From IMG/VR virus record IMGVR_UViG_3300033412_000476, positions 23,268 to 87,267 of that record: 64,000 nucleotides of DNA; one strand, written 5' to 3'. Both the position numbers and the translations under genes were made by a program. The notes beneath the pieces were generated by a model. It saw nothing but the letters and a program-made list of their open reading frames with translations. It was not told where the DNA came from and did not search any database. Positions 3,756 through 59,010 of the stretch are shown piece after piece (position 1 is the stretch's first letter; each line of letters opens with the position of its first letter). The DNA is from a virus. Its lineage: Duplodnaviria; Caudoviricetes.

Positions 3756-4471
3756 CACAGAAATCCCTTCGGTGGGTACACCTTGCCAAGAGCGTCGAAG
3801 CCGTGGTGTTTCTCCGCGATCGAGTCTAGATGGCGCCCGAGGTCGCGCCCGTAGCGCTCGGCGCGCTCGCTACGAATCGAACGCGCGATCGCTGCCCCGA
3901 GGTTGGGCTCGCGCGCAGGCGCGGCAGCAGCCTCCGCGCGACCGTTGCACGCTGGGTAGCGGCTGCAGCCCTTGAAGGGGCCGCTGCGCCCGGTGCGCTC
4001 GACCTGGGGTGCGCCGCAGGCCGGGCAGCGGGGGCCGACCGTGGCGGCCTTGAACGCCTCACGGATTACGCCGGTGAGTCGCTCGAGGAAAGCGGCCTGG
4101 CGCTGCGCTTCTCCGCCCGCAGGCGCCGTCCGGAAGACGCGGACCGCCTGACAGAGCGGCTTGAATCCGAAGCCGTCCAAGCGGCGGTAGGCGCCTGCCG
4201 CGAGCGGTGCCGGCAAGGGCGCCGTATCAGCGATGACGCCCCAGAAGATGCGGATTGCGTCGGCGCCACAGTCGCGCAGCTGCGCGTCGGTTGAAATCGA
4301 CGTAAAGACGCGCACTTCGGTGCGCCTGCGCGCTGGCCGCAGCAGGGCCACAATCTCGTTTCCGCTGCTGCAGAGTAGGTAGCCCCCGCCCGACTGCTTG
4401 ACGGCCGCGCCGATATTGTCGAGCGCGCCAAGCAGCGCCGCGGGCGGCACGTTGTAGAAGCGCGGGCTCAT
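3755..4471 (-). CDS. protein with C-terminal topoisomerase-type C4 zinc ribbon
   Basis: CPACGAPQVERTGRSGPFKGCSRYPAC matches the zf-C4_Topoisom pattern; start MSPRFY at 4471. Confidence 0.7.
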   Translation of the reverse strand: MSPRFYNVPPAALLGALDNIGAAVKQSGGGYLLCSSGNEIVALLRPARRRTEVRVFTSISTDAQLRDCGADAIRIFWGVIADTAPLPAPLAAGAYRRLDGFGFKPLCQAVRVFRTAPAGGEAQRQAAFLERLTGVIREAFKAATVGPRCPACGAPQVERTGRSGPFKGCSRYPACNGRAEAAAAPAREPNLGAAIARSIRSERAERYGRDLGRHLDSIAEKHHGFDALGKVYPPKGFL

Positions 4472-4620
4472 GACCGCGAACCGCGCTTGTAGATACTTGC
4501 GCTCGCGGCGAGTCCGCACACAACGCCCAAGGCAACGGCGCCCGGCGTGCCGAGATGCCACGCCGCCGTCAGCACGAACGCCGCCGCGCAGGCGATCACG
4601 AGAGGTAGATATCGAAGCAC
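4468..4620 (-). CDS. 50-aa membrane protein
   Basis: Not in the ORF track; GTG start after GGAGAG RBS gives MLRYLPLVIACAAAFVLTAAWHLGTPGAVALGVVCGLAASASIYKRGSRS. Confidence 0.55.
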   Translation of the reverse strand: MLRYLPLVIACAAAFVLTAAWHLGTPGAVALGVVCGLAASASIYKRGSRS

Positions 4621-4636
4621 GTTGCTCTCCTACAGG

Positions 4637-4693
4637 GCTCGGGTTCCAGCCGAGCGTCGCACAACCAGACGTTGCCTCAACCGGGCATATTCT
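4637..4693 (-). promoter_or_regulatory. early cassette: AGAAT-N17-CGTCTGG plus GGAA-loop hairpin (variant copy)
   Basis: Reverse strand: gaatatgcccggttgaggcaacgtctgg...gctcggCTGGAACccgagc. Confidence 0.55.
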
Positions 4694-5183
4694 TCAAGAC
4701 CGGTCGCACGATGAAGCCGTACGCGTCGAGCGCTGCAGCTTCACTCGCGGTCACACGGAAGACTTCGCCTGCGCGCAGCTGGGCAACGATCCACATCGCG
4801 GGCTCAATGCCGAGCCCGCTGCAAACCCGCAGCAGTGTCGCGACGTAAGCTTCGTGTTGCTCGCGGTCGAGCGGCAGCGCGACGACCTCCCAAGTGCACT
4901 CGATTACCGGCGGGCGTTTCGCAAACCAGCGCCCGAGCTCCGCTGCACTCGGCTGCCTGGGATTTGTCGTGAGGGCGATGAGCCGCTCGCGGGCTTCCGC
5001 TTCTAGCGCGCGGTTCTTCTCGTCGAGCGCTTCTAGCAGCGCATCCGCGCACGCGACCGCGGTACGTTCAACGCTGTCGTCTGCTGAGCCCGTCGCGTGA
5101 CCCAAGATGTATGGTTGCCGCACCGTCGGATCCTCGAGCAGTAGCTTGAAGATCTCGAGCGCGAAGCGTTCACGTGTTTCCAT
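4677..5183 (-). CDS. hypothetical protein
   Basis: METRERF start at 5183 after GGAAGG. Confidence 0.55.
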   Translation of the reverse strand: METRERFALEIFKLLLEDPTVRQPYILGHATGSADDSVERTAVACADALLEALDEKNRALEAEARERLIALTTNPRQPSAAELGRWFAKRPPVIECTWEVVALPLDREQHEAYVATLLRVCSGLGIEPAMWIVAQLRAGEVFRVTASEAAALDAYGFIVRPVLKNMPG

Positions 5184-5190
5184 CAGAGCG

Positions 5191-5583
5191 CTACCTTCCT
5201 GGTTCCATGCGAGCATAGTAGTGGCCATCGGGGAGAATCGAGACCAGGCGAATCAGACATGCACGAGACAGGATGCGCGCGGTCCTGATCTGTTGACCTC
5301 GTACCGGCGCAGATGCTTTCGGATCAGCCGGCAACGACTGAAGTAACGCCGTCTGTGCAGGCGTGAGCCTAGGCGCTGTACCGCGCGAACGCCGCGCGCT
5401 GTACTGCGGGCTTTGACCCCGCAGCTTGTTGGCGAGCGCGCGGGCTGCGCCGAGCGTCAAGCCCCCGCGGACGTGCAGTGCGCCGATGACGTCGTCGTGG
5501 CTCAGCGACTCGAGCGCGGCGAGTATCGCGCCAACGTCCTTTCGATTCAGTGGGATCACTTCGTTGGGTGTTTGCGAGCTCAC
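5191..5583 (-). CDS. hypothetical protein, possible C-terminal winged-helix
   Basis: GTG at 5583 overlaps helicase stop; LTPAQTALLQSL...RILSRACLI pattern. Confidence 0.4.
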   Translation of the reverse strand: MSSQTPNEVIPLNRKDVGAILAALESLSHDDVIGALHVRGGLTLGAARALANKLRGQSPQYSARRSRGTAPRLTPAQTALLQSLPADPKASAPVRGQQIRTARILSRACLIRLVSILPDGHYYARMEPGR

Positions 5584-7133
5584 TTCACGTCCCCGTCGAG
5601 CCACACCAGCTCATGCTTGGCGCGCGTGATGGCGACGTAGCGGATGTTCTCTTCTTCGGTGCCTTCACGCCAGGTCGTGGTCTCGCCGCGGCTCTTGCAG
5701 AAGGTCGCCGAGAGCAGCCACACGCGGCCAGCCTCGAGCCCCTTGGCGCGGTGGACGGTCGACAGCATGATCACGCTGCTGACGTCGTCGCCGGTGAAGA
5801 GCGTGTCAAAGCGCGCGTACAGCTCCGCGAAGCTGTAGATGCCCTCGACCAAGGCCGTGATGACCGCGCGGTTGTCTCCTGCGATCTCGATGGCGGTCTC
5901 GCCGGTGCTCGGGTCGATCTCGCCGCGCTCGACGCGCTTGTTGATGACTCGGATCTCAGCGTCGAGCTGTCGGTCGAGCTCCGCGAGCAACCCATCGATG
6001 TTGCGCACGCCCGAGCGCTCCACACTCTCGACCTGCTTGCGCAAGCCTTGGCTGAGGTCACGGCCGCGGATGCGCGCGGCCTTGCCGTTCTTGAGCAGCG
6101 TGAGCGCTGCAGGCACGAGCGGGGCGTTGGTACGGCTGAGCACGAAATCGCCCGGACCAGCTTCGCGCACGAGCGTGTCGCGTACGTCGAGTGCGTGGCG
6201 CACGATGCCGACCGGCGCGGTCGCCGCTGCAACGAAGTCGAGGACCAACTTCACAGCCTCGGCCACGACTGCTTGCGGGCAGCGATAGGTGGTCTTCAGG
6301 CCCAGCTCGACAGCTTGGAGCGAGCCCTTCATGCGATCGAGTGCGCTCGCGTCCGCCCCGCGCCAGCTGTAGAGACACTGCCTGTCGTCGCCGATCACGC
6401 ACACTCGGCCCTCCGGCCGCGTCGCCTTGGTTGCCAGCTCGAGCTGTGCCGCGGACATGTCCTGCGCTTCGTCAACGCACACGAGGTCATAGCGGCCGAA
6501 CACCATCCCGTGCACGAGCGGCAGGAAGATCATGTCCGAGAAGTCGATCGTGTCGGTCCGGTCGGCGGCGATCTCGGCAGCATCGAGCGCCCACTGCGCG
6601 ACTGCGCCGTCAGTCCAGCCCCGATCTTCGTCGAAGTCCTCGCTCGGCAGCAGGTGACCGTAATCGAACGCCATCTGCGTGACGGTGTCCCATGCGCCGT
6701 CGTCAGCGTACGCGCGGCCCTTGTCGGTGTCCCAGTACACCAGGTGTGGCTTGATCTCGCGGATCTTGGTGCACAGCTCGGCAACGCAGCGCAGGACCGA
6801 CTGAGGGGCGTTCTTGGGCACTACGGCCTTGGCCAAGGACCACTTGCGGCGGTTGTCGACGTTGAGCTTGGGCCACGCGCGCCGCAGGTACGAGAACCCC
6901 AGGCCGTGCAGCGTCTTAGCCTCGGCGCGCGGGTTGGTCAGCCGCGACTGCAGCTCATCGGCGATGATCTTGTTGAACGCCGCGAGCAAGATCCGGCGCT
7001 CGGGCGCACGCGAAATCCCCTCGATGATCGTCGTCGTCTTGCCCGTGCCAGCGCGAGCGCGAATCACCAGGTTGCCCTTGCCCTCGGCAAACCAGCGGAA
7101 GATGTCGTTTTGCTCGGGGCTCCAAGTCTTCAC
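5580..7133 (-). CDS. superfamily 1 UvrD/Rep-like helicase
   Basis: Walker A ARAGTGKTT, VDEAQD, GDDRQCLYSWRGA, TYRCP, STVHRAKGLEA, YVAITRAK; likely GTG start at 7133 after GAGGGAG. Confidence 0.92.
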   Translation of the reverse strand: MKTWSPEQNDIFRWFAEGKGNLVIRARAGTGKTTTIIEGISRAPERRILLAAFNKIIADELQSRLTNPRAEAKTLHGLGFSYLRRAWPKLNVDNRRKWSLAKAVVPKNAPQSVLRCVAELCTKIREIKPHLVYWDTDKGRAYADDGAWDTVTQMAFDYGHLLPSEDFDEDRGWTDGAVAQWALDAAEIAADRTDTIDFSDMIFLPLVHGMVFGRYDLVCVDEAQDMSAAQLELATKATRPEGRVCVIGDDRQCLYSWRGADASALDRMKGSLQAVELGLKTTYRCPQAVVAEAVKLVLDFVAAATAPVGIVRHALDVRDTLVREAGPGDFVLSRTNAPLVPAALTLLKNGKAARIRGRDLSQGLRKQVESVERSGVRNIDGLLAELDRQLDAEIRVINKRVERGEIDPSTGETAIEIAGDNRAVITALVEGIYSFAELYARFDTLFTGDDVSSVIMLSTVHRAKGLEAGRVWLLSATFCKSRGETTTWREGTEEENIRYVAITRAKHELVWLDGDVK

Positions 7134-7183
7134 GGCTGCATACTCCCTCTGTTCAGGCTGCGGTGCCTGTTGCGTTGCCCTTC

Positions 7184-7212
7184 TTAGACGAATCCTCGCC
7201 ACGGCTATTCAC
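7184..7212 (-). promoter_or_regulatory. early cassette promoter GTGAAT-N16-CGTCTAA upstream of helicase
   Basis: Exact motif copy, no hairpin. Confidence 0.65.
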
Positions 7213-7218
7213 TCGCTT

Positions 7219-7751
7219 TCACGGAAGCAGACAGTAGCTTGCGCGGCCGACGGCGATCGCGAGCGTTGCACCGTAGAAGTCGCGGCCGTCATCGCCGACG
7301 CGCACGACCCACACCCATTCGAGCGCGACCCCGAGCGGTTCGAGCGCGACAGCCTTGTGCTGCTCTCGCGAGATCGAGACTGTGTGATACGCCTGCGCCA
7401 AGCGCTCGATCTCAGCCTGCACTTCGGCGGCGCGGTGCAGCGTCTTCACGGCAACGCTCGGAAGGTCGACCCGACCAGTGGCACGGCGATGTGTTCGCCG
7501 CGTGACTCGAGTGACCAGTCCGGATAGAGCGCCACGCAGCCGGGCTCGGGCTCGAACGCGACGCTACCGATTGCCGCCCCGCGCTCAGCTCGACGCTGCA
7601 GCGCGTCGATTCGAGCCTGCGCAATGTCGGCCCGCTTGCGCGGCGAAAGGTGCGCTGTGCTGTTACCGATCTCGCCGCCGCGCCCTTGGATCGGCCCGAC
7701 CAGCACACGACCATCCGCCAACTTCACGCGAAACCGCACTACGCCTTCCAT
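7219..7751 (-). CDS. two small hypothetical genes (7219..7449, 7446..7751)
   Basis: Coupled ORFs; RBS AGGAGG before ATG 7751. Confidence 0.5.
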
Positions 7752-7776
7752 TCCGATCCTCCTACAGCTCGCCCGC

Positions 7777-7804
7777 TTAGACGAAAACTGTTTTCGGCGA
7801 TTCA
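7777..7804 (-). promoter_or_regulatory. early cassette promoter TGAAT-N16-CGTCTAA
   Basis: Exact motif; TGA of the motif is the stop of 7802..7993. Confidence 0.65.
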
Positions 7805-7998
7805 ACGCTCCGCGGCGTCGACCTCCAAGATCGTGAAGACCACCGCGCGCAGCCGAGCGTATGTCAGCTCGTCGCCCGGCTTGGATGCACGCGCACCCAT
7901 TCGGAAGAGCCGACCGAGCGCCATCCGCATCAACACGGCGCGCTCGTCCTTGCTCAGCGAGGCGATCGCCTCCGCTTCTGCAGGTAGGCTCATGATCT

Positions 7999-8388
7999 TC
8001 AGGCCCCCCAGATCAAGCCGTCGTCACCCACATACAGGTGATACTCGTGGAACGCTTTGCATGCATCGGTGAGCGTTGTTGCGGCGGGCTCCGACCAATC
8101 GCCATCCCAGAACCCCGCGCCGTGGCCGTTGCGCGTCAGCCAAAAGTCGTGGCCGGCTTGCTCGTCCTCAGAGTGCTCGCTCACGCGGGCCCACTGACCG
8201 GACCACGTCGAGCGCTGCGCTTCGAAGAAGGCTTTGCAGTCCGCTTCGAGCTTCGCGCGAGTCTCGGGCGCGAGATCTTCCGGGCCGTAGTTGTCGTCGA
8301 TCGGATCGCCGCCGTCGTCGCGACTCTCGTCGTTGCTCGACCACAGGGCGCACGTGATGTACGCCCGCGTGAAGTCCGCGAGGCTCAC
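7999..8388 (-). CDS. conserved phage/plasmid hypothetical protein
   Basis: FTRAYITCALWSS and AGHDFWLTRNGHGAGFWD motifs recalled from a widespread MGE family. Confidence 0.65.
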   Translation of the reverse strand: MSLADFTRAYITCALWSSNDESRDDGGDPIDDNYGPEDLAPETRAKLEADCKAFFEAQRSTWSGQWARVSEHSEDEQAGHDFWLTRNGHGAGFWDGDWSEPAATTLTDACKAFHEYHLYVGDDGLIWGA

Positions 8389-8618
8389 AACGACACCTCG
8401 CGGTCAAAGGTGACCTGCAGGTTGAACACGCCGTGCACGTCGTGCCGCAGGGGCACGAGCGCGTAGATCCGCTGCGCACGTAGCGCGAAGCTGCACCGGT
8501 GCACGACCATGTCCGGGCTGCGTCGGCAGCTCTTCAGCAGCCCTTGCGCCGCTGCGCGATCGATCGGCTTGCCGTTCCAGGGCAAGCCCGTGCCAAAGAG
8601 AACGTATTGATAGCCCAC
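8385..8618 (-). CDS. hypothetical protein
   Basis: GTG at 8618 after cassette hairpin and AGGAG. Confidence 0.5.
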   Translation of the reverse strand: MGYQYVLFGTGLPWNGKPIDRAAAQGLLKSCRRSPDMVVHRCSFALRAQRIYALVPLRHDVHGVFNLQVTFDREVSL

Positions 8619-8633
8619 GTTGCTTGTCTCCTG

Positions 8634-8688
8634 CCCCGGGTTCCAGCCGGGGTTGCATCTTAGACGTTGTCTGCTTGCTCTGCATTCA
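8634..8688 (-). promoter_or_regulatory. early cassette TGAAT-N17-CGTCTAA plus hairpin ccccggCTGGAACccgggg
   Basis: Direct reading of reverse strand. Confidence 0.7.
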
Positions 8689-9835
8689 TCCATTCGAGCA
8701 GCGAAACATGCCGATCGACGATCTTCACAGTGAAGGTGTGACCCGTCCGCGCAAGCGACACGCACAGCGCCGAGAAGTCCGTATCGGTGTGGTGCGCATG
8801 CACGTACGGCTCACCCTTCGCGATACGCGCCGAGCCAAGGCGTGCGTTGTGACCACAGCGCAAGCGCACCACCTCGACAACTACGGCGCTCACGGTGCCT
8901 CGACTGCGCGCACGTCTGCGACGTCGTAGTTGACCTCGCAGCCCGCGAAAACGCCGGAGTCGATCTTCAGGACCGCGAGCACCCCGCGGCCATAGTCGTG
9001 ATACCGCACGAATGTGTAGCCTTTGAACCAGTCCGCGCAGCGGTAGGCCCACAGCGTGCGCACTTCGACCGGCGCACCGGGTTTCAGATCGAGTTGCGTG
9101 TTCATCGCGACACCGCGTCTGCAGGCACGTAGGCGTAGCGGTGTGCGAGGTCGTGGCGACCGAACGAGTCCGGGCCGGCGTTCCACTCAGGCAGGAACCG
9201 CTCGGGGTTCCTGACGGCATACAGCGGCTTGCCCATGCCGTCGGGGACGACGTCCAGCTCGGTCCCCGCGGGGACGTCGATCACCGTCGAGCGCGTGATC
9301 GTGAGCCGTAGTGCTCGGTTGGTGACTGGCATGTTCCTACCTCAGCCCTTTCCAGTGTTGGATCTGAAGATCTTTTGCGTACCGCTCGGTATCGGCGACA
9401 CTCACCCAATGCCAGGGTGCGCCCGCACAGAGTCGAAACTGCAGCGCGACACCTAGCTCAACGCCAACACGTGCGTCTGTGTTCAGCACGTCGCGCAGAG
9501 CTTGCATTGCGCCGAGCAACGTTCGATGTGGTCGGCTGCTAGCGGGCCAGCCTCTGGGGTTGTCAGCGTGCACGGGGCCGCCGTCGCTTACGTATCTGAT
9601 CCGCCAAGTGCCCACGGTGCTACCTCACGCCCGGCGGGAAGATCTCGGCGAACGCTTCCGCCTCGTCGTCGAAGTTGAAGTGACCCCATTCGCAGCGCGC
9701 TTTGCGGACAACCGCTGCGCGGTCAGCACCCTTGATCGTGCTGTACGGGCAGCGCGCAACCCAGGTGCCGTCAGGCGCTTGCGTCAAGCTGTAGTTGGTG
9801 CGGATGTACCGCTGCCGTTCGTTCGGCGTTGACAC
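8660..9835 (-). CDS. five small hypothetical genes (8660..8893, 8890..9105, 9102..9332, 9337..9615, 9620..9835)
   Basis: Contiguous co-oriented short ORFs with overlapping stop/start codons. Confidence 0.5.
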
Positions 9836-9849
9836 GTTGCCTCCGTTCT

Positions 9850-9903
9850 CGCGGGTTCCGCCGCGTTGTGCTGATTAGACGTTGCTCGTGCTCGAGGGAT
9901 TCA
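9850..9903 (-). promoter_or_regulatory. early cassette TGAAT-N17-CGTCTAA plus hairpin cgcggCGGAACccgcg
   Basis: Direct reading of reverse strand. Confidence 0.7.
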
Positions 9904-10500
9904 CCCGACCGGGGCAGAAATCGCCCCGCACGCACGTCTGCGTGACTGCGGAGAGCACCGATCCACAGCGTGAGCACGCGCCGATCGTCGGCGCAGTGCG
10001 GCCCGACGCTGCGCTCGCGATCTTCGCAAGCAGTGCTCGCCCGGCTTCCGTTGCGGTCGCGTACGGATAGGCGACTGTCACCAGATCCTTGCGTGCCAGC
10101 TCATAGCAGGCTCCGCCGTTGGTTGCTTCGTGGCACCCATGCGGTCGAGCGGCCGCGAGTAGCGTGTCGTACAGGCGCCAACTGAGGGCCTTGCAGCCGT
10201 TGTCCCGGGCTGCTGTCCACGTGCGTTTGGCTTGGGCGCGGTTCATGGTTCTTCACCACAGCGGCGAAGCACGTCACAGTAGTAGGCGTCAAGCGTCCCG
10301 CAGTGGAGTCGACCCGACTCCATGTTCAGCAAACCCCGCGCTGCGCGGCACAAGTCAGCCAGGTAGTCCGCGGCGTACTCGTCCGCAGCCCACTGCGCAG
10401 CGGCCGTAACGATCGCTCTGTGCAGCTGCACATGTGCTCGCTCGGGACCGCGGGGTGACGCCATCGCGGCGTCGTGCCGAGTCTTCTCGTCCGTGCTCAC
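9875..10500 (-). CDS. two hypothetical genes (9875..10246, 10243..10500)
   Basis: Coupled ORFs; first ends at the TAA of CGTCTAA. Confidence 0.5.
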
Positions 10501-10516
10501 GTTGACCTTCCGTTCT

Positions 10517-10572
10517 GCGCGGGTTTCCGCCGCGCGTGCCTGGTTAGACGAAAACTGTTTGCGAGGTATTCA
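10517..10572 (-). promoter_or_regulatory. early cassette TGAAT-N17-CGTCTAA plus hairpin gcgcggCGGAAACccgcgc
   Basis: Direct reading of reverse strand. Confidence 0.7.
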
Positions 10573-11465
10573 GTCGTTCCAAGGCCGACGATCGGCGCCG
10601 TCGGAGTCTTTGAGTGTGCACAGCGCGCACGGGTTAGGGCCTGGCCTGCCGCAGTCGCACGCGACCTCACGCCGCGACAACTCGAGCCCGTCGAACGTTG
10701 CCGCACACTGAGCCACGCGAGCGGGGTTGAGCACGCGCAGCGCGTCGCCTTCCGCCGACGACTCTGCGGCGCGCGTGCGGAGCACGAGGCTGCGAAACTC
10801 GCGGTAGTCCTCGGGTGACTGCGCAGTGACGTCCACGAGCCAGCCCTTGCGAAGCGTGATCATGTCGCCACCTCCCCGATCACTTCGCCCGAGATACCAT
10901 CGAAAAGCAGGAACGACCGCGCGGTATTGCCCAGCTTTTCAGCCGCCCACACACGCGCTTCCGCGATGCTGGCGAAGCAGCCCCGGGTCAAGGTCGCGAA
11001 CGGTCCCGTTGACTCTGTGGGGTGCCATTCGGTGCGACCCTCGATCGTGAACGGAATGCAAACCGTCCAGTAGCGGTCGAACACTAGCGAGCCGTCGACG
11101 TCGACCTTTCGGCCAACCACTGACGCCAGATCACCCATAGCCACAAGCACCCTCCGTCGGCCTGCCATCTTCAGTGCGCGTAGGCCAGATCGCGCAGACC
11201 CCAAGTCGGGGTTTCGGCTTCAGTCGATCGTCAGATCGTACAGGTGCTGGACGCCACCGTCGGAGTAGTCGACGCCCCACAGCAAGCGCGCCGCACCGGG
11301 GTCACGCTTGGGGCTGAGCCCTACCGCGATCGTCTCGCCCGACTCGCAGCTGACGTCGGAAGCCAGCTCGCGCGCTGCAGCTTCGATGGCCTGCGGGTTC
11401 GCTTCGCCATGCAGCTGCCGAGCATGGCAGTCGCCAAACCGATCCTTGATCACCACACAACCCAT
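10570..11465 (-). CDS. three hypothetical genes (10570..10863, 10860..~11138, 11220..11465)
   Basis: Co-oriented ORFs between cassettes. Confidence 0.5.
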
Positions 11466-11481
11466 GACGCATCGCTCCTTT

Positions 11482-11532
11482 GCGCGGGTTCCGCCGCGCG
11501 CTTGTTAGACGGGCTTGCGCCCGAGAGATTCA
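11482..11532 (-). promoter_or_regulatory. early cassette TGAAT-N16-CGTCTAA plus hairpin gcgcggCGGAACccgcgc
   Basis: Direct reading of reverse strand. Confidence 0.7.
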
Positions 11533-11886
11533 CTTCGCCGCGTACTTCGCCCAACGGCGAGCGCGCTTGATGCGGTACTGCGCGCGGACATCGGCGATCG
11601 CCTCGTCACGCGTAGCGCCGAGCCCGGTCGCAACGAGGTTTCCGCCGCGGTACAGCTCAGCGTGCCGGTAGCCCCCGGGCATACCCGGGGTGTAGGGGTC
11701 CTCGCGCACCTGAAAGCGCTGGCCAAAGCCGTCCAGCTCGCGAAGCTTCGCCTTGTCTTCGCTGTAGGTCGCCGCCGCGCGCAACCAGCGGACCGTCGCA
11801 GAGGTGCCGCACAGCGCGGTCACTTCGCCGATGTCGTGCTCCGCACTACCGGGCCGACCCGACGCAACCATGGACCCTACACGCAT
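11530..11886 (-). CDS. first gene of leftward arm, hypothetical
   Basis: ATG 11886 after AGGAGG. Confidence 0.6.
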   Translation of the reverse strand: MRVGSMVASGRPGSAEHDIGEVTALCGTSATVRWLRAAATYSEDKAKLRELDGFGQRFQVREDPYTPGMPGGYRHAELYRGGNLVATGLGATRDEAIADVRAQYRIKRARRWAKYAAK

Positions 11887-11903
11887 TCGCCGTACCTCCT
11901 GCC

Positions 11904-11957
11904 GGGGGTTTCCGCCCCGTTCGCCCATTTAGACGGGGGCCCCCGGGGGCGTATTCA
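11904..11957 (-). promoter_or_regulatory. leftward early cassette TGAAT-N17-CGTCTAA plus hairpin ggggCGGAAACcccc
   Basis: Direct reading of reverse strand. Confidence 0.7.
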
Positions 11958-11962
11958 AAGGC

Positions 11963-11988
11963 TGTCAAAAAATAGCTCTTTTTTGACA
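11963..11988. repeat. inverted repeat TGTCAAAAAA-N6-TTTTTTGACA (operator-like)
   Basis: Perfect 10-bp arms in the AT-rich divergent region. Confidence 0.8.
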
Positions 11989-12011
11989 AAAAGCCTGCGT
12001 ATTACTATAGT
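11983..12011 (+). promoter_or_regulatory. sigma70-type promoter TTGACA-N17-TATAGT
   Basis: TTGACA 11983-11988 and TATAGT 12006-12011; the -10 lies within the perfect 18-bp palindrome GTATTACTATAGTAATAC (11999-12016). Confidence 0.75.
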
Positions 12012-12035
12012 AATACACGCTTTTCTTTGGGCATG

Positions 12036-12089
12036 GTGAATACGGCCCGAAAACCGCCGTCTAATAGGGCGAACGCGGCGGAAACCGCG
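12036..12089 (+). promoter_or_regulatory. rightward early cassette GTGAAT-N16-CGTCTAA plus hairpin cgcggCGGAAAccgcg
   Basis: Direct reading. Confidence 0.7.
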
Positions 12090-12129
12090 GAAGAACCCCC
12101 GGGATGGATCCGGGGCTGAAGGAGGGCTT

Positions 12130-12627
12130 ATGGCACTGCATTTCAAGGGTGAACGGGGCGTCCAGTACGCCGGGCGCGTGCTGCGCGACCGCTACGTGAG
12201 TGACGTTCGGATCATGAGTGACGTTTGGGCTGGACAGTACATGCTCGATTGCGTCGAGCCCGATGGATCGATCACGTCGATCGCGTACATGACGGAAGGC
12301 TTTGGCGGGAACCCGGGGCTGGAGTCGTGGGAGATCGACGCCACCCCGGAAGCGATCGCGCAGCACGAAGCTTGGCTCGCGGCGCGCGAGGCTGAGCGCG
12401 TCGAGCTGGAAGCGCGCCGCGCTCGCGCGATCGCCGCAGCTGAGGCTAAGGCGGTTCGCAAGGGCCGGCGCTGCAAGGTTGTGCGCGGTCGCAAGGTGCC
12501 CAAGGGCACGGAAGGCGTGTGCATCTGGGTTGGCGACGGTCACTACGGCGAGCGTTGCGGCATCAAGGACGACTCCGGAACCGTCCACTGGACCGCGAGC
12601 AAGAACGTCGAAGCGATCGCCCCGTGA
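12130..12627 (+). CDS. first gene of rightward arm; hypothetical with C-terminal SH3/KOW-like region
   Basis: GRRCKVVRGRKVPKGTEGVCIWVG motif recalled from phage proteins; GGAGG RBS. Confidence 0.6.
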   Translation: MALHFKGERGVQYAGRVLRDRYVSDVRIMSDVWAGQYMLDCVEPDGSITSIAYMTEGFGGNPGLESWEIDATPEAIAQHEAWLAAREAERVELEARRARAIAAAEAKAVRKGRRCKVVRGRKVPKGTEGVCIWVGDGHYGERCGIKDDSGTVHWTASKNVEAIAP

Positions 12628-12740
12628 TCGCTAGCGCGTGAGCCCCCTGCGGGGCTCCGCATCCCTCGCAGCGCAAGCGCCCGACGTTGGCGCGGCGAGG
12701 GATGCGCCGGCCGGAACACCGGCGCTAGGAGGCTAGGAAC

Positions 12741-13955
12741 GTGGATCAACATGATCTCCCGCGGAGCTTTGGCCGACGTACGGCCGGTGTAGCTAACGCA
12801 CGTGCAGCAGCACAACGGCTGATCGCCGATGCGACCGCGCTGGACGGCGGTGCGATCGACCGCGCGAAGTATCTGCTAGAGCTTCGCCCCGCAACGCTGG
12901 CCAAAGCCTGCGGGATCACTACGGCTGATCTGCAAGCACTGCTCTGCGAAGCCCGTGAGCAGTACCACACCGCTGAGCACGCGCGACCTGTGCGCGCCAG
13001 TGTCAGCATGATCCGTCGGCGTGTCGAGTTTCGCGTAGCGCTCGCGCTCGCGAAAGAGATCGTAGTGAATACCGGCAGCTGAAGCGCCGTCTAAGACAGC
13101 AAACCCGAGAGAAGGAAGAACATGGCAAAGTCTACTGTGGACACAGTCCGCGGCGTCCCGTTCGCGGACATGGGCGAAGAAGAGCTTGCGGCGTACGCAC
13201 ACGGCGCTGCGCAGTCGAGCGATGAAGGCTATAACCAAGCCGTCGCACGCGCGGCACGCAAGGAAATCGCCAAGCGCGCCAAGCGCGCCAACGATCTGAC
13301 CGAGTACGCGGTCGACGGCTTCAACGGTGCTGAGTGCAGATTGCTCTACTCGTCGGCGGCATGGTTTGCGTTCCAGCTCGGGGTTTACCTCAAAGCGACC
13401 GGGCGCTCGACCCCGCGCGACGTTCGCATGGGTCGTGGGTACTCGGTGCGCTGCGCCGACATGCTCTTCAAGCACGTGGACGGCGCGACGTTCGAACGCG
13501 TGCAGTGAATACCGGCGGCTGAAGTTTCGTCTAACCACAAACCGCGCGGCGGAACCCGCGCATCGTTAGGAGAGGTCATGGAGCAACTCAGCTTGGGGAT
13601 GCTGACGTGCGACGCGCACGAGGCATCGGCACCTTACGAGTCGGATCGTTGGGCGAGCACCGATCGCGGCTGGCTGTACGACCCTGCGCACCCTAATGCG
13701 GACTACCACGGCGGCAACCTGCCGATCGGCAACTATCTCGATTACGGGCCGTGCGGAGAGCACTACCGCAACAACCCCGACGGCGCCGTGCACGTGTGCT
13801 TCACGCCGTGGTGGATCGACCCCGTGACGCGGTCGATCTGCCGCGGAGTGACAGAGAGCACGCACGTGCACACCCCTGCAGAGGCGCAAGCCTGGCTCGC
13901 CGAGCAGTACCGCCTGTGGACGGCGCGGCGTGCCGCAGACAAGGTGACGCCGTGA
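12741..13955 (+). CDS. three hypothetical genes (12741..13082, 13122..13508, 13578..13955)
   Basis: Each has a purine-rich RBS and follows a cassette or hairpin element. Confidence 0.6.
13065..13094 (+). promoter_or_regulatory. early cassette promoter GTGAAT-N17-CGTCTAA
   Basis: gtgaataccggcagctgaagcgccgtctaa. Confidence 0.7.
13505..13561 (+). promoter_or_regulatory. early cassette GTGAAT-N17-CGTCTAA plus hairpin gcgcggCGGAACccgcgc
   Basis: gtgaataccggcggctgaagtttcgtctaa; near-identical to the 13065 and 14419 copies. Confidence 0.7.
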
Positions 13956-14422
13956 AAAACTACTTGGACAAACTGATTGTACGGCGCGAGCGGAGCCTCG
14001 TGTGCGAGTCGGACGGGCCGCTCGGCCGCAAGATCACGCACAGCGGCGACATCGCGAAGATCGCGATCCCGCTGATTGGGCCTGAGGCTGTCGAAGTGTT
14101 CGTGATCTTCGCGCTGACCGCGCGACACAAGGTCACGGGCTACCACGAAGTGGCGCGTGGCTCGCTAAGCAGCTGCGCAGTCAGCCCCGGGGACGTCGCG
14201 CGCGTCGCGTTGATCGCGGGCACGCCGGCCTTCATCGTGGCCCACAACCACCCTAGCGGCGAGCCTGAGCCCAGCCCCGAGGACATCGCGCTCACGCGGA
14301 AGATCAAGCAGGCTTTCGACCTGCTCGGACTGACCCTGCTCGATCACGTGATCGTCACGAGCGAGCACCACAAGAGCTTGCTCGATATGGGCCTGCTCGA
14401 CGTTTCCGTGAAACCGGCGTGA
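13952..14422 (+). CDS. stand-alone RadC-like JAB/MPN+ domain protein
   Basis: EVFVIFAL...HNHPSGEPEPSPED...LLDHVIV with intact H-x-H...S-x-x-D; GTG start at 13952. Confidence 0.88.
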   Translation: MKNYLDKLIVRRERSLVCESDGPLGRKITHSGDIAKIAIPLIGPEAVEVFVIFALTARHKVTGYHEVARGSLSSCAVSPGDVARVALIAGTPAFIVAHNHPSGEPEPSPEDIALTRKIKQAFDLLGLTLLDHVIVTSEHHKSLLDMGLLDVSVKPA

Positions 14423-14482
14423 ATACCGGCAGCTGAAGTTTCGTCTAAGAGGCACAAGCAAGCGGCGCGGCTGGACCCGCGC
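14419..14482 (+). promoter_or_regulatory. early cassette GTGAAT-N17-CGTCTAA plus hairpin gcgcggCTGGACccgcgc
   Basis: gtgaataccggcagctgaagtttcgtctaa. Confidence 0.7.
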
Positions 14483-14499
14483 AAGGATGGGAGAGCAAC

Positions 14500-15072
14500 A
14501 TGGCAACGGACATCATGGCTTGGTGGAAGCTGCACTTGCCGCCGCACCTGCGCGAGACGGCGCCCGAGCGGCCCGAGGGAACCGACCTCGCGATCTGGCG
14601 CGAGGAGATCGACGGCAATCCGTTCGCGTACGGCTTCCAAGGCAAAGCGCGTCAGCCCGTGTGGGCCTATCGCTTCAAGGACGCCGCGCACCGTGAGCGG
14701 TTCATCGGTGAGAAGATCGCCGCACGTAGGGCGCACTTCGGTCGCAAGGCTGAGCGCGCAGCGGAACGCAAGCAGGCGACGCACAGCCTCACGGTGGGTG
14801 ACATCTTGTCCTCGAGCTGGGGCTACGACCAGACCAACGTCGATTTCTACGAGGTGGTCGCCGTCCCTAGCTCCAAGTCGGTAATCATCCGGAAGATCGC
14901 CAGTCAGGCGGCCGCTCGCGACCGCGTCGCGCCGCAGCCCGGGGTGTTCATCGAGGGCCCCATGCTCAAGCGCGTGACCGCCCACGGCTCCGTGAAGATC
15001 GAGGATTACGCCTGGGCCAGCAAGTGGTCCGGAGCTCCGATGTACCAGACCGACATCCACGAGGGTCACTGA
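14500..15072 (+). CDS. conserved MGE hypothetical protein
   Basis: GDILSSSWGYDQTNVDFYEV motif recalled from a widespread phage/plasmid family. Confidence 0.65.
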   Translation: MATDIMAWWKLHLPPHLRETAPERPEGTDLAIWREEIDGNPFAYGFQGKARQPVWAYRFKDAAHRERFIGEKIAARRAHFGRKAERAAERKQATHSLTVGDILSSSWGYDQTNVDFYEVVAVPSSKSVIIRKIASQAAARDRVAPQPGVFIEGPMLKRVTAHGSVKIEDYAWASKWSGAPMYQTDIHEGH

Positions 15073-15087
15073 GCTTTGCGCCTGCGT

Positions 15088-15141
15088 TGAATACCTGAAA
15101 ACTGTTTTCGTCTAAGCTGACGGCTCGGCTGGAACCCGAGC
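15088..15141 (+). promoter_or_regulatory. early cassette TGAAT-N16-CGTCTAA plus hairpin gctcggCTGGAACccgagc
   Basis: Direct reading. Confidence 0.7.
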
Positions 15142-15157
15142 AGAAGGGAGAATCAAC

Positions 15158-18100
15158 GTGCAACTCGACATCGAATACGTGCTCGCGGGCGAGCCGGAAG
15201 ACTGCGACCCAGCAGATCACTTCGACGACAGCGACGAAGGCGACGCCGACGTCACATGGGTTCATGAGCAACTCAGCGCCGGCAACCAGTGGGCCTGGTT
15301 TCGCGCGGTCGTCACCGCCCGCGTTACACTCGACGGCCAAACGTTCGAAGGCGTCGACTCGCTCGGGTGCTGCTCGTACAAGTCGGAGGACGACTTTCGA
15401 CAGTGCCAGTACTTCGACGACATGAAGACTGAGGCGCGCTACGCCTTGCTCGCGTCACTGCACACCGCCGTCCGTAGGGGCGAGCTTGCCGCGGTCGCGC
15501 TGACCCAGGTGACGCCATGATCTACGGACGATTTGGCGACGCAGTCACGATCGTGCGCATGGGCACGCTCGACGACGTCAAGACGATCGACGGCCGCAAG
15601 CCCGACAAGCAGGACCGCGAGGCTGTCGAGATCGGTAGCTACGTCGTAGTCCGCCAGGACAACGGCAAAGAGCGGCTCTACCACCTTGCGTTCCTGCGCG
15701 CCGACGGCGGCAGCAAAGAGATCAACGAGGCAATCGCCGCCTGCGACCCCTGGAGCCAGCCATGAAGGGTCTACGCCGGCTGAAGCAGCCGCAGATCGAG
15801 TACATCGGCCGCGGGCCTCGTGTGGTCGCGCTGAGCGCAGCGAGCGCGCTCTACTTCTTCGGCTTCGACAGCGAAAACTATGAAGCTGTCGACGTCGGTC
15901 CGCCGGCTGATCCGCACCGCTGGAAGCCGGAAGCTCGCGTGTACGAGTGCCGCAAGAAGCAATCGAAGATGAACTGAGCCTCGAGCTGGAACCTCGAGCA
16001 TCAACAGGGAGAAACGAACGTGAGTATGAACAGACCCAGCGTCACCGTACGTAACAACAACGTCCCCGGTGCGGCGGCTGACGGTGAGACGATCGTCGAG
16101 TTTAGCTTTCAGGACAGCACTGGCGGGCTGATCTCGTTCAGCATCGACGCGGAAGGCAACCCGCGCGTGGAGCTCTACCGCTGCGACGAAGGCATCCGCG
16201 TAGGACTCGACAATCTGACTGACCACAAAGGCGGCAAGCTGATCGCCGCGAGCGACATGTCGCTAGCCCGGATCGGAATCACCAAGTGAGCACCCACGAT
16301 CCCGAGCTGCTGTTCATCGCGCACTACCCGCCGGGCCCGGTGCGCACGTTCGCCGCGCGGCTGCTCAACGAGGTGGGCTGCGCGGTGCAGACCGAAGACT
16401 ACATCGCAGGCGTCGCCGAGTGCTGCGGCTGCAGCACCGCCGACCGCGAGCGCGTGATCACGCGCGCCATCGATTGCGGCTTTCTGCGCGCTGACGCGCT
16501 GCAGTGGGCGCCCCGAGGCAAACCCCGCTACATCCCTTGCCTGTTCGCGGTGCAGCCATGAGTTTCACCATGAAGGCGATCGCCATCGAGATGCGCAAGC
16601 GCGTCGCCACGCGGCGCAAGCCTACACTGGACGCGCTACGCGCGATGTCGCTACAGCAGATCGATCAGCTTCTCACGGAGTGCGCGGTCAAGGTTGTTCG
16701 CCTGCATACGTCGAAGTCGACGCCGCTGCGTTCGTACGCCTGCAAGCTCCGGCGGTTCGACGGCTCAACAGTCGAGCGCTTCGCAACGACAGCCGGACAG
16801 GCACTTCTCGACGCGCTCGACAGCGCAACAGACGCCGGCTGGTTCGGCGATCACTACGAGCAACGAAACCAACTACAGGAGACAGCGCAAGATGAGTGAG
16901 AGAACCGACAGAGCCCGCGTGGTTGCGGGCGCAATCAAAGCCAAGGTCGCTGCCTACGAGAACGGCGAGTGCGACAACGGCGCGCTCGACGTTGCCACCA
17001 ACGCGATCGCCATGCTCGGCCAGCTGGCCGACGCGGTGCTCACGCTCGCCGAAGAGCACGATCATCTCGAGCGCACGCTCGCCTCACGCACGGATCACCT
17101 CGCGTGACCAAACCCCTGAACGAGATACTTCAAACGAAGATCCTCGAGCAACGCTCCGGCGCGCTGCTGCGCGCGTACGAGCTGATGCAGGAGACTGCGA
17201 AGCAGATGCCTCCGGCTGCGCGCAAGCTGGCCGATCGCGCGCTCCTCGAGCTCGAGGCGTTCGGCCAGAGTCTCGAGCGTGAGTACCGCTCAAGGGGACT
17301 GTAGCGATGACGCTCGAGGAGATCATCGCAGCGATCGGCCGGCACATGTTCTCGCGAACGCAGCTGAACCGCGAAGTCTCCGCACGCGTGCACCTACACA
17401 ACGACGTGCTCATCGGCAGTCTGTACCGCGACGTGCTCACTGACGAGATCACGCTGCTAGTTCAACTCGGCCAAGCTTGGTGCTACGGCTGGCAGCCCGA
17501 GGAAGCCCGCGCAACGTACTACCTGTCGCGGTTCACCAGGAGCCTGCGGCCATGAAGAACAGAAACCGTTTCAGGACCATCCACCGGAAAGCAACGATGC
17601 CCGCGCCCAAGAACGTGATCTTCGCCCCAACGAGCGTGCACATCTATCCGGACAGTCAACGGGGGCAGGTTGCCTTCGAGCTGCGCAACAAGGCTAATAA
17701 GCCGCTGATGACGCTGCTACTCGAACCTGAGGGCGCCGCGAATCTGTTTGCGAAGCTCGGAGAGGCCCTCGTCGCGATCACCGGTACCGCGGACCACTGG
17801 CGTCGCGGCGCTGTCGAGCCGCAGAAGACGCAAGCGCGCTGCACATGCCCTTGCCCTGACGATCCCGACAAGCCGTCGACCGATCCGACCGCGCACTACA
17901 TCGGTTGTCCGTTTCGCGCAGAGCTCGAGGCGCAGACCGAGTGAAGATCAGAGTCAAGACGCCGCGACGGCTGCCGCCCAAGGCAGAAGCGATCGATTAC
18001 CCAGAGATCATTTCGCAGATCAATCGGGAGCTGGAGCACCACGGCCTGAGCGCGCTCGACTTGCTCAGCAGCTTCGCGCTGCATCTGTTGGGCGTCGCGC

Positions 18101-18255
18101 TGGACGTCACCCCGCAGCACCCCGTCAGCCAACAAAAGGTCTATAGAGACCTGCACTTAGAGATCAGCCGCATGGTCGGAGAGGCGCTCGACCGCAAGCA
18201 GCGTCTACTCGGATCTCCGCTGGGCAACCAGTCGCTACCGAAGGAGCGAGACTAG
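15158..18255 (+). CDS. run of ~11 small hypothetical genes (15158..15520, 15517..15765, 15762..15977, 16020..16289, 16286..16561, 16558..16899, 16892..17107, 17104..17304, 17307..17555, 17552..17944, 17941..18255)
   Basis: Nearly all linked by ATGA/GTGA stop-start overlaps; hairpin ctcgagCTGGAACctcgag at 15980-15998. Confidence 0.6.
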
Positions 18256-18283
18256 GAGCACGCGCGCGAAAATAGATTTCGGC

Positions 18284-18337
18284 TGAATCTTGTCGTAACG
18301 TCGGCGTCGCAGTTCAACCCTCGGCTGGAACCCGAGG
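18284..18337 (+). promoter_or_regulatory. early cassette variant TGAAT-N16-CGTCGCA plus hairpin cctcggCTGGAACccgagg
   Basis: Direct reading; precedes the RecA-like gene. Confidence 0.55.
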
Positions 18338-18358
18338 CGCACCAAGGAGAAAAACAAC

Positions 18359-19150
18359 GTGGCAGATTTCATTTCAACAGGGGTCTTGTCCCTCGATTGC
18401 GCGCTCGGTGGCGGCTACCCGAAGAACGGCATCGCCGAGATCTACGGCGAGATGGGCGCGGGGCGGCTGACGCTCGCGCTGCATGCGATCGCAGAGTGCC
18501 AGCTGCAGCCCGACGGCGTCACGTTCATGTTCGCGCACGGCGATCAGATCGCGCCCTTCGACGCAGTCTACGGCATGCGGCTAGGCGTCGACCCTCAGCG
18601 GTTTCTGCACTTCGAGCAGCGCAAGCTCGAGTTGCTTTTTCGCTGCCTGCGCAGCGCCGTCACCGGCAGTCATCCGCCCGACCTCGTGATCGTCGACCTC
18701 CGCCGCGGCATCGCGCGACTGTCGGCCGAAGAAGGCAGTGAGCTGGTCGCCCGGCTCTCGCTCTTTCTGCGCGAGCACTGCTCTCACAAGCAGCGCACGA
18801 GCTTGCTCTTTCTCAGCGACGGCAAGCTGCAGCCGCTGCAGTTTCACGCGCAGCAGCGCATCCTGCTGCAGTTCGACCGCGTCGCGCCCAACGACGACAC
18901 GCTCGTGCACGCGAACATCGTCAAAAACCGGCTCGGCGAGCCGTACAAGCAGCTGAGCCTGCAGCTGACGCCCGGCGACGGCGTCGATCTGATCGCGGAC
19001 ATCGTGCGGACGGCCGCCTACGCCGGTGTGCTGCCACACCAGAACGTCGAGGCGCTGTGCGTAGAGCTCCGCCGCGACAACCACGCCCGCGAGGCGCTCT
19101 GCCGTACCGTGCGCAGCAAGATGCTCTTTGGCGCGAGCGTTGCGCAGTGA
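18359..19150 (+). CDS. degenerate RecA-like protein, predicted ATPase-inactive
   Basis: ISTGVLSLDCALGGGYP..IAEIYG, LGVD, DLVIVD and VKNRLGEPYK follow RecA order, but Walker A reads GEMGAGRL. Confidence 0.85.
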   Translation: MADFISTGVLSLDCALGGGYPKNGIAEIYGEMGAGRLTLALHAIAECQLQPDGVTFMFAHGDQIAPFDAVYGMRLGVDPQRFLHFEQRKLELLFRCLRSAVTGSHPPDLVIVDLRRGIARLSAEEGSELVARLSLFLREHCSHKQRTSLLFLSDGKLQPLQFHAQQRILLQFDRVAPNDDTLVHANIVKNRLGEPYKQLSLQLTPGDGVDLIADIVRTAAYAGVLPHQNVEALCVELRRDNHAREALCRTVRSKMLFGASVAQ

Positions 19151-19434
19151 CAGTAACCCGCTACGCGCTCGTGCACCCAGAGATGGGGATCTACCTCGGC
19201 AGCGCGATGGGCCTTGGGTTCTGGTCCAAACTAGATCCTGTCGGCCAGCCTGCGGCGGTGACGTTCGACTCGGAGCAGCAAGCGCACGACGTCGTAAAGA
19301 CCTGGGACGCGCCCGTCACGGGCTACACGCTGCACGCCGTCGAAATCGCGTACGGCGTGTACGCCACCGTCGATGAGTGCGTTCGCGCCGGCCTACCGAA
19401 GTGGAACCCGTGGGATCAACGGAGCACACGATGA
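19147..19434 (+). CDS. hypothetical protein
   Basis: GTG overlaps the RecA-like stop. Confidence 0.55.
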   Translation: MTVTRYALVHPEMGIYLGSAMGLGFWSKLDPVGQPAAVTFDSEQQAHDVVKTWDAPVTGYTLHAVEIAYGVYATVDECVRAGLPKWNPWDQRSTR

Positions 19435-45175: not shown

Positions 45176-45226
45176 GCAGAGACGTGAACCAGTCGAAGTT
45201 GCTTCTAGGCGAAATCAGTTTTCGCG

Positions 45227-46787: not shown

Positions 46788-46794
46788 GGCGAAA

Positions 46795-46824
46795 AGTATC
46801 CTTTGCGCAAACGTGTTTGGTCAA
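46795..46824 (-). promoter_or_regulatory. sigma70-like promoter TTGACC-N18-GATACT, leaderless
   Basis: -10 ends 7 nt before ATG 46787; 25/30 identical to 47180-47209. Confidence 0.6.
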
Positions 46825-46830
46825 AGACAG

Positions 46831-47172: not shown

Positions 47173-47179
47173 CGGCGCG

Positions 47180-58905: not shown

Positions 58906-59010
58906 CTGCCCCGCCCCTGGCGTACCCCTAGAGAAGGATTTCTCGTTGGTGGATTTGTTGGTGGCAGACCCACAGTAGCCCGGGGCGGAGCCCCGGCTCA
59001 AGAGGCATCG

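Follow-up and report, generated by a model that had tools for sequence, protein, structure and literature searches.

The phage record and the hairpin family

The DNA analysed here is a stretch of 64,000 nucleotides, referred to as the window, that corresponds to bases 23268-87267 of the linear viral record IMGVR_UViG_3300033412_000476 (87,267 bp), which was derived from soil metagenomes. The window carries a family of short hairpins with GGA in the loop, the core set of which comprises 13 sites between positions 4637 and 18337. Six of these hairpins are on the minus strand and seven on the plus strand, to the left and right, respectively, of a divergence point at approximately 11960-12040; on both sides, and at every core hairpin, GGA lies on the sense strand of the gene that comes next. 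Eleven of the 13 stand after a promoter-like motif, TGAAT-N16-17-CGTCTAA, with which they form a cassette, and the hairpins at 12704 and 15980 have no such motif. An earlier note on this DNA had described 11 cassettes and two stand-alone hairpins, and all 13 were found. Three members that it had not listed were added, at 12097-12115, 8566-8588 and 45164-45181. Positions refer to the window unless they are marked otherwise, and the individual features are collected in Table 1.

The record has a G+C content of about 64% and an estimated CheckV completeness of about 66%. Its replication genes encode a family A DNA polymerase, which is the product of the longest open reading frame (ORF; 989 aa), RecD-like and UvrD-like helicases, an SNF2 helicase and a RecA/UvsX-like protein, and ThyX, UDG, RadC, a D12 methylase, an integrase-family protein and ParB are encoded as well. 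The DNA polymerase is at most 25% identical to GenBank phage proteins. Judged from its sequence, the phage is very divergent and uncultured, since its structural proteins had no PHROG match, no tRNA genes were found in the record and no GenBank phage gave a DNA match to it.

Stem covariation and loop conservation

The core stems are G+C-rich and consist of five to seven perfect Watson-Crick pairs. The 13 core loops read CTGGAAC (five copies), CGGAAC (three), CGGAAAC (two), CGGAAA, CTGGAC and CCGGAACA (one each), which gives the general form C(U/C)GGA(A/C)(A)(C). When the core and variant loops were taken together, GGA and nothing else was invariant in all 16; the 5' C was invariant in the 13 core loops. 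Since these letters are constant while the stems vary, the loop is under selection separate from the stem.

The hairpins are far more numerous than expected by chance, with 14 in the 87-kb record compared to a mean of 1.95 (standard deviation 1.31, maximum 5) in 100 first-order Markov genomes. The genome has 15 CTGGAAC words, collected with no pairing requirement; six of them have 6-8 flanking pairs and nine have 0-1, and the other loop words gave the same two-peaked pattern of either 5-8 perfect pairs or almost none. A covariance model built from seven copies recovered the remaining six core copies, and a search of the 87 kb with the covariance model revealed no clear family member elsewhere.

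In the model alignment 96.7% of the cells pair, and double-sided changes were observed in all six stem pairs (23 cells). The covariation score was 0.738, compared to 0.181 ± 0.046 in shuffles (0 of 500 reached it) and at most 0.117 with slid partners, values to be read with the caveat that the copies were partly chosen for pairing and that the alignment was fitted to the structure. The divergent cassettes at 12037 and 11929, whose flanks are near-identical, have stems (CGCGG..CCGCG vs CGGGG..CCCCG) that differ by one compensatory pair. The earlier note had regarded the variable but complementary stems and the near-invariant loop as signs of an RNA structure; the stems do covary around a fixed loop, and the covariation check on the aligned copies upheld this view. 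The hairpin is a selected structure, not a mere repeat.

Three soil DNA runs contained no variant letters within any hairpin, so no population-level covariation was seen in them. At gathering level no Rfam family matched in the window, and nothing related to the hairpin matched at E values of up to 5 either. A scan of IMG/VR for the cassette pattern returned only chance single hits. Relatives of the helicase in IMG/VR and metagenomes were at most 44% identical; they lacked the cassette and carried other repeats instead. The 90% cluster of the RecA-like protein has members on an 87,028-bp JGI contig (sample 3300045391) and on SRA contigs; the 87,028-bp relative, the only one with gene calls, has the same gene order according to those calls.

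Three GGA-triloop hairpins with G+C stems of 6-7 bp (CCGGGC GGA GCCCGG) were also observed, at window 40936-40950 (minus strand), window 58980-58996 (plus strand) and genome 17743-17759 (minus strand). One of them directly adjoins a TTG start codon.

Position of the hairpin in the leader

The distance from the end of the stem to the start codon is 14-17 nt in ten of the 13 core copies, with or without a promoter, and 21, 21 and 40 nt in the others. The variants at 12097 and 45164 have 15-16 nt, and a Shine-Dalgarno (SD) sequence and a start codon, at 15 and 21 nt, are also retained by the two copies with no promoter. Where two hairpins share the leader of gene 12130-12627, the canonical 16-nt spacing to the ATG belongs to the hairpin at 12097, not to that at 12074. 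The SD sequence starts 3-7 nt past the stem, and the loop GGA is separated from the SD GGA by 13-20 nt in 12 of the 13 copies. Upstream, the -10 block of the promoter lies 5-10 nt from the stem in ten of the 11 promoter-linked copies and 16 nt from it in one. The distance to the start codon is therefore more constant than the distance to the promoter; the hairpin is tied to the ribosome-binding site, not to the promoter.

The conserved module extends to the start codon, with CAAC directly before it in seven of 14 hairpin leaders. GTG starts are weakly enriched among the hairpin genes (Fisher p = 0.08, based on crude gene calls). Nearly all of the genes that follow the cassettes are ORFans: they could be assigned to no Pfam family, and no paralogues were found among the cassette genes. 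The variant at 45164 has the SD context CCAAGGAGAAAAAC in common with the cassette at 18319 and, unlike the cassette promoter class, stands behind a TTGACG-17-TAGAAG motif.

Stem stability ranges from -6 to -14 kcal/mol. The local hairpin was the minimum-free-energy fold in nine of 13 contexts that comprised the leader plus 33 nt, and the mean unpaired probability of the loop was 0.40-0.99. At every copy the sequence 3' of the stem is a purine-rich SD with no T run; an intrinsic terminator was ruled out on these grounds.

One of the intergenic gaps contains a candidate type II hammerhead ribozyme (RF02276), at 11156-11219 on the minus strand, within the 81 nt between genes 11220-11465 and 10860-11138. 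It was the sole sub-threshold Rfam match and is unrelated to the GGA hairpin. It scored 31.4 bits against a gathering score of 37, with the full model matched and the core elements GAAAC, GUC and CUGAAGA present. The minimum-free-energy fold is a three-way junction, although its stem II is just 3 bp long and its folding energy is unremarkable. Cleavage by such a ribozyme would put a hairpin at the new 5' end, approximately 25 nt before the next SD.

Promoters and a candidate phage sigma factor

The motif TGAAT-N16-17-CGTCTAA is present in 12 exact and two degenerate copies, and a family hairpin follows 11 of these 14. The 12 exact motifs in the 87-kb record compare with 0.02 expected from 100 first-order Markov genomes. 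All of the cassette motifs lie upstream of start codons and are aligned with the direction of the gene, with a spacer of 16-17 nt, and they lack the TAnnnT of the sigma-70 -10 element. Promoters of the extracytoplasmic function (ECF) type have an AAC/AAT-type -35 and a CGTC-type -10 element, and the cassette promoters resemble ECF-sigma promoters. The sole match to the sigma-70 consensus in the region 4000-19000, TTGACA-17-TATAGT (11 of 12 positions), is at 11983-12011 on the plus strand, in the divergence region.

Table 1. Hairpins and cassette-class promoter motifs (window positions; distances run from the stem to the start codon).
Feature	Sequence	Positions	Strand	Context
Hairpin	GCTCGG CTGGAAC CCGAGC	4637-4655	-	16 nt to GTG at 4620
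Hairpin, extra, 8-bp stem	GGCTTGCC CTGGAAC GGCAAGCC	8566-8588	-	inside coding sequence 8385-8618, 30 nt past start codon
Hairpin	CCCCGG CTGGAAC CCGGGG	8634-8652	-	15 nt to GTG at 8618
Hairpin	CGCGG CGGAAC CCGCG	9850-9865	-	14 nt to GTG at 9835
Hairpin	GCGCGG CGGAAAC CCGCGC	10517-10535	-	16 nt to GTG at 10500
Hairpin	GCGCGG CGGAAC CCGCGC	11482-11499	-	16 nt to ATG at 11465
Hairpin	CGGGG CGGAAAC CCCCG	11903-11919	-	16 nt to ATG at 11886; twin of 12074
Hairpin	CGCGG CGGAAA CCGCG	12074-12089	+	first of two in leader of gene 12130-12627
Hairpin, variant	CCCCGG GATGGAT CCGGGG	12097-12115	+	second in same leader as 12074; 16 nt to ATG at 12130
Hairpin, stand-alone	GCGCCGG CCGGAACA CCGGCGC	12704-12725	+	no promoter motif; 15 nt to GTG at 12741
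Hairpin	GCGCGG CGGAAC CCGCGC	13544-13561	+	16 nt to ATG at 13578
Hairpin	GCGCGG CTGGAC CCGCGC	14465-14482	+	17 nt to ATG at 14500
Hairpin	GCTCGG CTGGAAC CCGAGC	15123-15141	+	16 nt to GTG at 15158
Hairpin, stand-alone	CTCGAG CTGGAAC CTCGAG	15980-15998	+	no promoter motif; 21 nt to GTG at 16020
Hairpin	CCTCGG CTGGAAC CCGAGG	18319-18337	+	21 nt to GTG at 18359, RecA-like gene
Hairpin, variant	CTCTG CGTGGATA CAGAG	45164-45181	-	15 nt to GTG at 45148, ParB-like gene
Promoter motif, degenerate	AGAAT-N17-CGTCTGG	4666-4693	-	then hairpin 4637
Promoter motif	TGAAT-N16-CGTCTAA	7184-7211	-	helicase gene; unrelated leader hairpin CAGGC ACCGCA GCCTG
Promoter motif	TGAAT-N16-CGTCTAA	7777-7804	-	no hairpin; gene 7446-7751
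Promoter motif	TGAAT-N17-CGTCTAA	8660-8688	-	then hairpin 8634
Promoter motif	TGAAT-N17-CGTCTAA	9875-9903	-	then hairpin 9850
Promoter motif	TGAAT-N17-CGTCTAA	10544-10572	-	then hairpin 10517
Promoter motif	TGAAT-N16-CGTCTAA	11505-11532	-	then hairpin 11482
Promoter motif	TGAAT-N17-CGTCTAA	11929-11957	-	then hairpin 11903
Promoter motif	TGAAT-N16-CGTCTAA	12037-12064	+	then hairpin 12074
Promoter motif	TGAAT-N17-CGTCTAA	13066-13094	+	no family hairpin; gene 13122-13508
Promoter motif	TGAAT-N17-CGTCTAA	13506-13534	+	then hairpin 13544
Promoter motif	TGAAT-N17-CGTCTAA	14420-14448	+	then hairpin 14465
Promoter motif	TGAAT-N16-CGTCTAA	15088-15115	+	then hairpin 15123
Promoter motif, degenerate	TGAAT-N16-CGTCGCA	18284-18311	+	then hairpin 18319

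A sigma-like ORF lies to the left of the window, at L001:10582-11160 on the plus strand (genome 10582-11163), and is called as a protein of 170 aa, P0019, in the public gene calls. It aligned with positions 3-164 of the 165 positions of TIGR02937 (sigma70-ECF) at an E value of 2e-8 and a score of 34 bits, which is below the cut-off of 42.9 bits; in a six-frame search it scored 27.2 bits against Sigma70_r4_2, for which the cut-off is 25.7 bits. Its best match in the PDB was Rhodobacter RpoE (2q1z, E = 0.003). A single-sequence AlphaFold model was all-helical, with a predicted local distance difference test score (pLDDT) of 55, and was too poor for a fold search. No relatives of this protein were found by pattern or word search. 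The ORF is preceded by a ribbon-helix-helix-like gene (10346-10645) and, at L001:10307-10336, by the sigma-70-like promoter TTGACG-18-TAGTAT.

This ORF is a candidate for a divergent ECF-type sigma factor encoded by the phage. In the simplest scheme, the host sigma-70 RNA polymerase would make the phage sigma factor, which would in turn read the 14 cassette promoters. The cassette genes are probably middle rather than early genes, because their promoters are ECF-like and the phage has a candidate ECF-type sigma gene of its own behind a sigma-70-like promoter. The term early genes, as used in the earlier note, does not sit well with this arrangement.

The divergence point itself coincides with an AT-rich control region at 11960-12020. 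The -10 element of the promoter at 11983-12011 is within an 18-bp palindrome, GTATTACTATAGTAATAC, which is adjoined by an inverted repeat, TGTCAAAAAA-N6-TTTTTTGACA; both look like operators. A second palindrome, CGAAAAC(A/T)G(A/T)TTTCG, has approximately 20 sites genome-wide, for example at window 7784, 10551, 15098, 45212 and 57822. It is found in the spacers of some cassette promoters and of the parB promoter-like motif and also in many coding regions, and may be the site of a DNA-binding protein.

Other promoter-like motifs were noted. Two TTGACC-N17-GGATACT motifs on the minus strand, at 46787-46830 and 47172-47215, have the palindromic spacer sequence AAACRCGTT in common and end 7-8 nt before a start codon; their transcripts look leaderless. 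The motif CAGCTGAA is located 25-45 nt upstream of several plus-strand genes (genome ~18810-20840) and at window 61112, as well as inside three cassette promoter spacers, and may mark another promoter class. The neighbouring cassette-class promoters at 13066-13094, 13506-13534 and 14420-14448 have almost identical spacers (CCGGCRGCTGAAG...), which suggests recent duplication or gene conversion.

Proposed function of the hairpin

The compensated stem and fixed loop, the strand specificity, the fixed distance to the start codon and the lack of a T tract together suggest that the hairpin is transcribed as part of the leader, acts on the translation-initiation region and is recognised in a sequence-specific manner. 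The hairpin keeps its place relative to the start codon rather than the promoter, which favours a role in translation or stability over one in antitermination. The explanation that we prefer, tentatively and with confidence that falls just short of even, is that the hairpin, once transcribed, serves as an operator in the leader, where it presents GGA to an RNA-binding protein and also acts as a 5' cap. As judged from the leader anatomy, it would be present in the 5' leader of at least 13, and probably 15-16, mRNAs. The earlier note had proposed a shared protein-binding leader that controls translation, stability or antitermination; a transcribed leader with a sequence-specific reader is still the best reading, with translation or stability the favoured level of control, but the antitermination part is disfavoured by a hairpin that tracks the SD.

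The motif geometry suggests that host RNA polymerase carrying the phage ECF-type sigma factor would start at TGAAT-N16-17-CGTCTAA, a few bases before the hairpin. The nascent leader would then fold into a G+C stem of 5-7 bp with a single-stranded C(U)GGAA(C) loop, a fold that the covariation supports. Since the stem ends 3-7 nt and the loop about 10 nt before the SD, a protein on the loop would be within the footprint of the 30S subunit, and a dimeric reader could span the 13-20 nt from the loop GGA to the SD GGA. One factor could in this way set the translation of the whole gene set together. At promoter-linked copies the hairpin would be approximately 0-4 nt from the predicted 5' end and would probably guard the mRNA from 5'-end-dependent decay. 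Candidate readers of the loop are the product of an unannotated phage ORFan and a host protein of the CsrA/Rsm type.

A wider form of the operator explanation is possible, if rather doubtful: the hairpins may be the operators of a phage-wide post-transcriptional regulon, in which one protein reads approximately 15 leaders and switches a sigma-dependent gene class at translation. The reader in such a regulon would be either a phage ORFan product with a new fold or host CsrA.

Several findings weigh against a protein-read operator. Transcription, start sites and RNA folding were all inferred, and thermodynamic folding preferred competing structures in four of the 13 leader contexts. The covarying copies are paralogues within one genome and trace back to two or three lines of descent, so that the number of independent events is smaller than the number of cells. 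Three promoters of the cassette class (13066, 7777 and 7184) have no family hairpin, and the relatives examined carry no copy of the element. With regard to the reader, Pfam searches of 36 ORFs from the cassette region gave no RNA-binding domain, and csrA (PF02599) was not found in the 87 kb of a record that is about 66% complete. CsrA favours an A(N)GGA context, which is missing from the core loops, and its typical sites are less stable than the stems observed here (PMC7652899).

Alternative explanations

The main alternative, which we consider unlikely on balance though by no means negligible, is a purely cis-acting 5' stabiliser or insulator that needs no loop-reading protein: the hairpin would block attack by RNase E or RNase J and keep the C-rich leader off the SD. 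It is known that 5'-terminal stem-loops stabilise bacterial mRNAs. The geometry of the promoter-linked copies is consistent with such a role, since a hairpin 5-10 nt past the -10 block in ten of 11 copies would leave approximately 0-4 unpaired 5' nucleotides if transcription started 6 ± 1 nt after the -10 block. The stems are strong enough (-6 to -14 kcal/mol), and cleavage at the hammerhead candidate would likewise yield a processed 5' end that carries a hairpin ahead of an SD. A stabiliser does not, however, account for an invariant GGA and 5' C in the loop alongside changing stems. The copies at 12704 and 15980 and the copy within a coding sequence at 8566 would be internal to transcripts, and the distance to the start codon is steadier than that to the promoter.

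Direct recognition by host CsrA/RsmA, as put forward in the earlier note, is quite unlikely. Under this explanation a dimer on the loop GGA and the SD GGA would repress or time translation, and the leaders might titrate CsrA. The CsrA sponge array suggested in the earlier note is no more than speculative. The resemblance to CsrA/RsmA-repressed leaders such as glgC and hcnA, and to the CsrB/RsmZ repeats, lies in the GGA within a loop of 6-7 nt and in a bridgeable SD GGA (PMC7652899). GGA is within a 6-8 nt hairpin loop in all 16 copies here, and the second GGA, 13-20 nt away, is inside the 10-63 nt that a dimer of CsrA can span; in CsrB, the repeat CAGGA(U/A/C)G is also close to C(U)GGAAC (PMC7652899). 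These features fit CsrA, but the recognition sequence does not. The CsrA consensus from in vitro selection (SELEX) is RUACARGGAUGU, with ACA 100% conserved, and most SELEX hairpins have four pairs or fewer (PMC7652899), compared to the 5-7 G+C pairs observed here. The conserved A (of ACA or A(N)GGA) is missing from each of the 13 core loops, in which GGA is preceded by C, CU or CC. The variant loops GAUGGAU and CGUGGAUA are more CsrA-like, although only the former, at 12097, fits A(N)GGA. In addition, the second GGA is to be expected, given that the SD reads GGAG, at least 13 such leaders occur in one phage, and no csrA was found in the 87-kb record, itself about 66% complete. To our knowledge, many high-G+C soil phyla have no CsrA.

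An element that acts as DNA is improbable, even when its two forms are taken jointly. In one form, an extruded hairpin or cruciform would function as a promoter of the N4 type; in the other, a module for recombination and termination, similar to the PeSLs (promoter-early stem-loops), would shuffle ORFans. The early promoters used by the N4 virion RNA polymerase are hairpins with a conserved loop and closing bases, a free outer stem and GGA in the loop (PMC4496689), as here. In N4, however, the loop has 3 nt and its purines are on the template strand, transcription starts downstream, and there are three copies and a giant polymerase (PMC4496689); in this phage GGA is on the non-template strand of the downstream gene, an orientation that would send an N4-like polymerase away from that gene. 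The record has no ORF longer than 989 aa, and no T7- or N4-type RNA polymerase was found, in a record that is incomplete and in a search whose PF00940 control matched nowhere.

The PeSLs of T4-type phages are similar in that a promoter and stem-loop cassette is repeated, mostly upstream of small non-structural ORFans (PMC2839356, PMC4122927), and the cassettes likewise stand before unrelated ORFans (PMC2839356); the near-identical spacers of adjacent cassettes suggest gene conversion. PeSL promoters match the sigma-70 consensus, in contrast to the ECF-like promoters found here, and the PeSL stem-loop has varying positions around the promoter and acts as a terminator. The hairpin described here is always past the -10 block and, with no T tract, would have no terminator function. 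It also differs in its conserved loop, its covarying stems, its distance of 14-17 nt to the start codon and the presence of copies with no promoter, which retain the link to the SD. At the level of gene calls, no shuffling was seen in the 87,028-bp relative from the 90% cluster, which has the same gene order.

Least probable of all is a nut-like antitermination site, in which a boxB-type hairpin would load a phage N-like or LoaP-like factor onto RNA polymerase. Like the boxA-boxB sites of lambda, the hairpin is short and promoter-proximal, would display its purine-rich loop on nascent RNA near the beginning of a phage transcript, and is present twice in the first rightward leader; CGTCTAA, 5-10 nt upstream of the hairpin, has what we take to be a faint resemblance to boxA (CGCTCTTA). 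The boxB analogy drawn in the earlier note nevertheless fits poorly: lambda boxB has a 5-bp stem and a GNRA-like pentaloop and occurs once per operon, whereas the loops here have 6-8 nt, copies stand before nearly every cassette gene, and their position follows the SD and start codon instead of the promoter. CGTCTAA is fixed at 16-17 nt from TGAAT, as a -10 element would be, intrinsic terminators are not in excess (11 vs 10.0 ± 3.6 in shuffles), and no NusG, N or Q-like family was present among the Pfam hits.

Two further candidates were rejected. A sigma-54 -24/-12 reading of CTGGAAC was ruled out by eye because of the wrong GG-GC spacing, and mimicry of a tRNA anticodon loop or T-loop (CUGGAAC fits Y-U-NNN-R-N) was ruled out by the 6-nt loops that have no U.

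Comparison with known systems

Like the hairpin family, the SAS and ESAS elements of Cluster K mycobacteriophages are phage-private repeats in one orientation directly upstream of the start codons of some non-structural genes (PMC3203893). SAS is present in 11-19 copies and a role in translation has been suspected (PMC3203893), but it is a 13-bp sequence, GGGATAGGAGCCC, that includes the SD, and the hairpin sequence is different. ESAS consists of 17-bp inverted repeats of conserved sequence around a variable spacer, which is the reverse of the variable stems and fixed loop found here.

With regard to promoter context only, the sigma factors of the phiEco32 gp36 and phage 7-11 type are similar, in that a phage sigma factor is combined with two-block promoters of fixed spacing before non-early genes. 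We know of no conserved-loop leader hairpin in those systems.

In layout the element is closest to the PeSLs and to SAS/ESAS, and in its recognition logic to CsrA leaders or boxB-type operators. It belongs to none of these families; its distinctive feature is a hairpin with a conserved loop and covarying stems that is tied to the start codon.

Implications for phage gene control

The timing of phage gene expression is usually put down to promoters and sigma factors, and here a second signal is present in the leaders of nearly a whole promoter class. If the hairpin were only a 5' stabiliser, it would be ordinary. If it is a protein-binding operator, it would constitute a compact and portable translation switch, a 19-nt hairpin at a fixed 14-17 nt from the start codon, and would provide a handle on a new RNA-binding protein among the phage ORFans or reveal phage genes wired to host CsrA. 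Were the reader CsrA, the leaders together would drain the host CsrA pool. The regulon, if it exists, would add a second, RNA-level layer to the sigma cascade of the phage.

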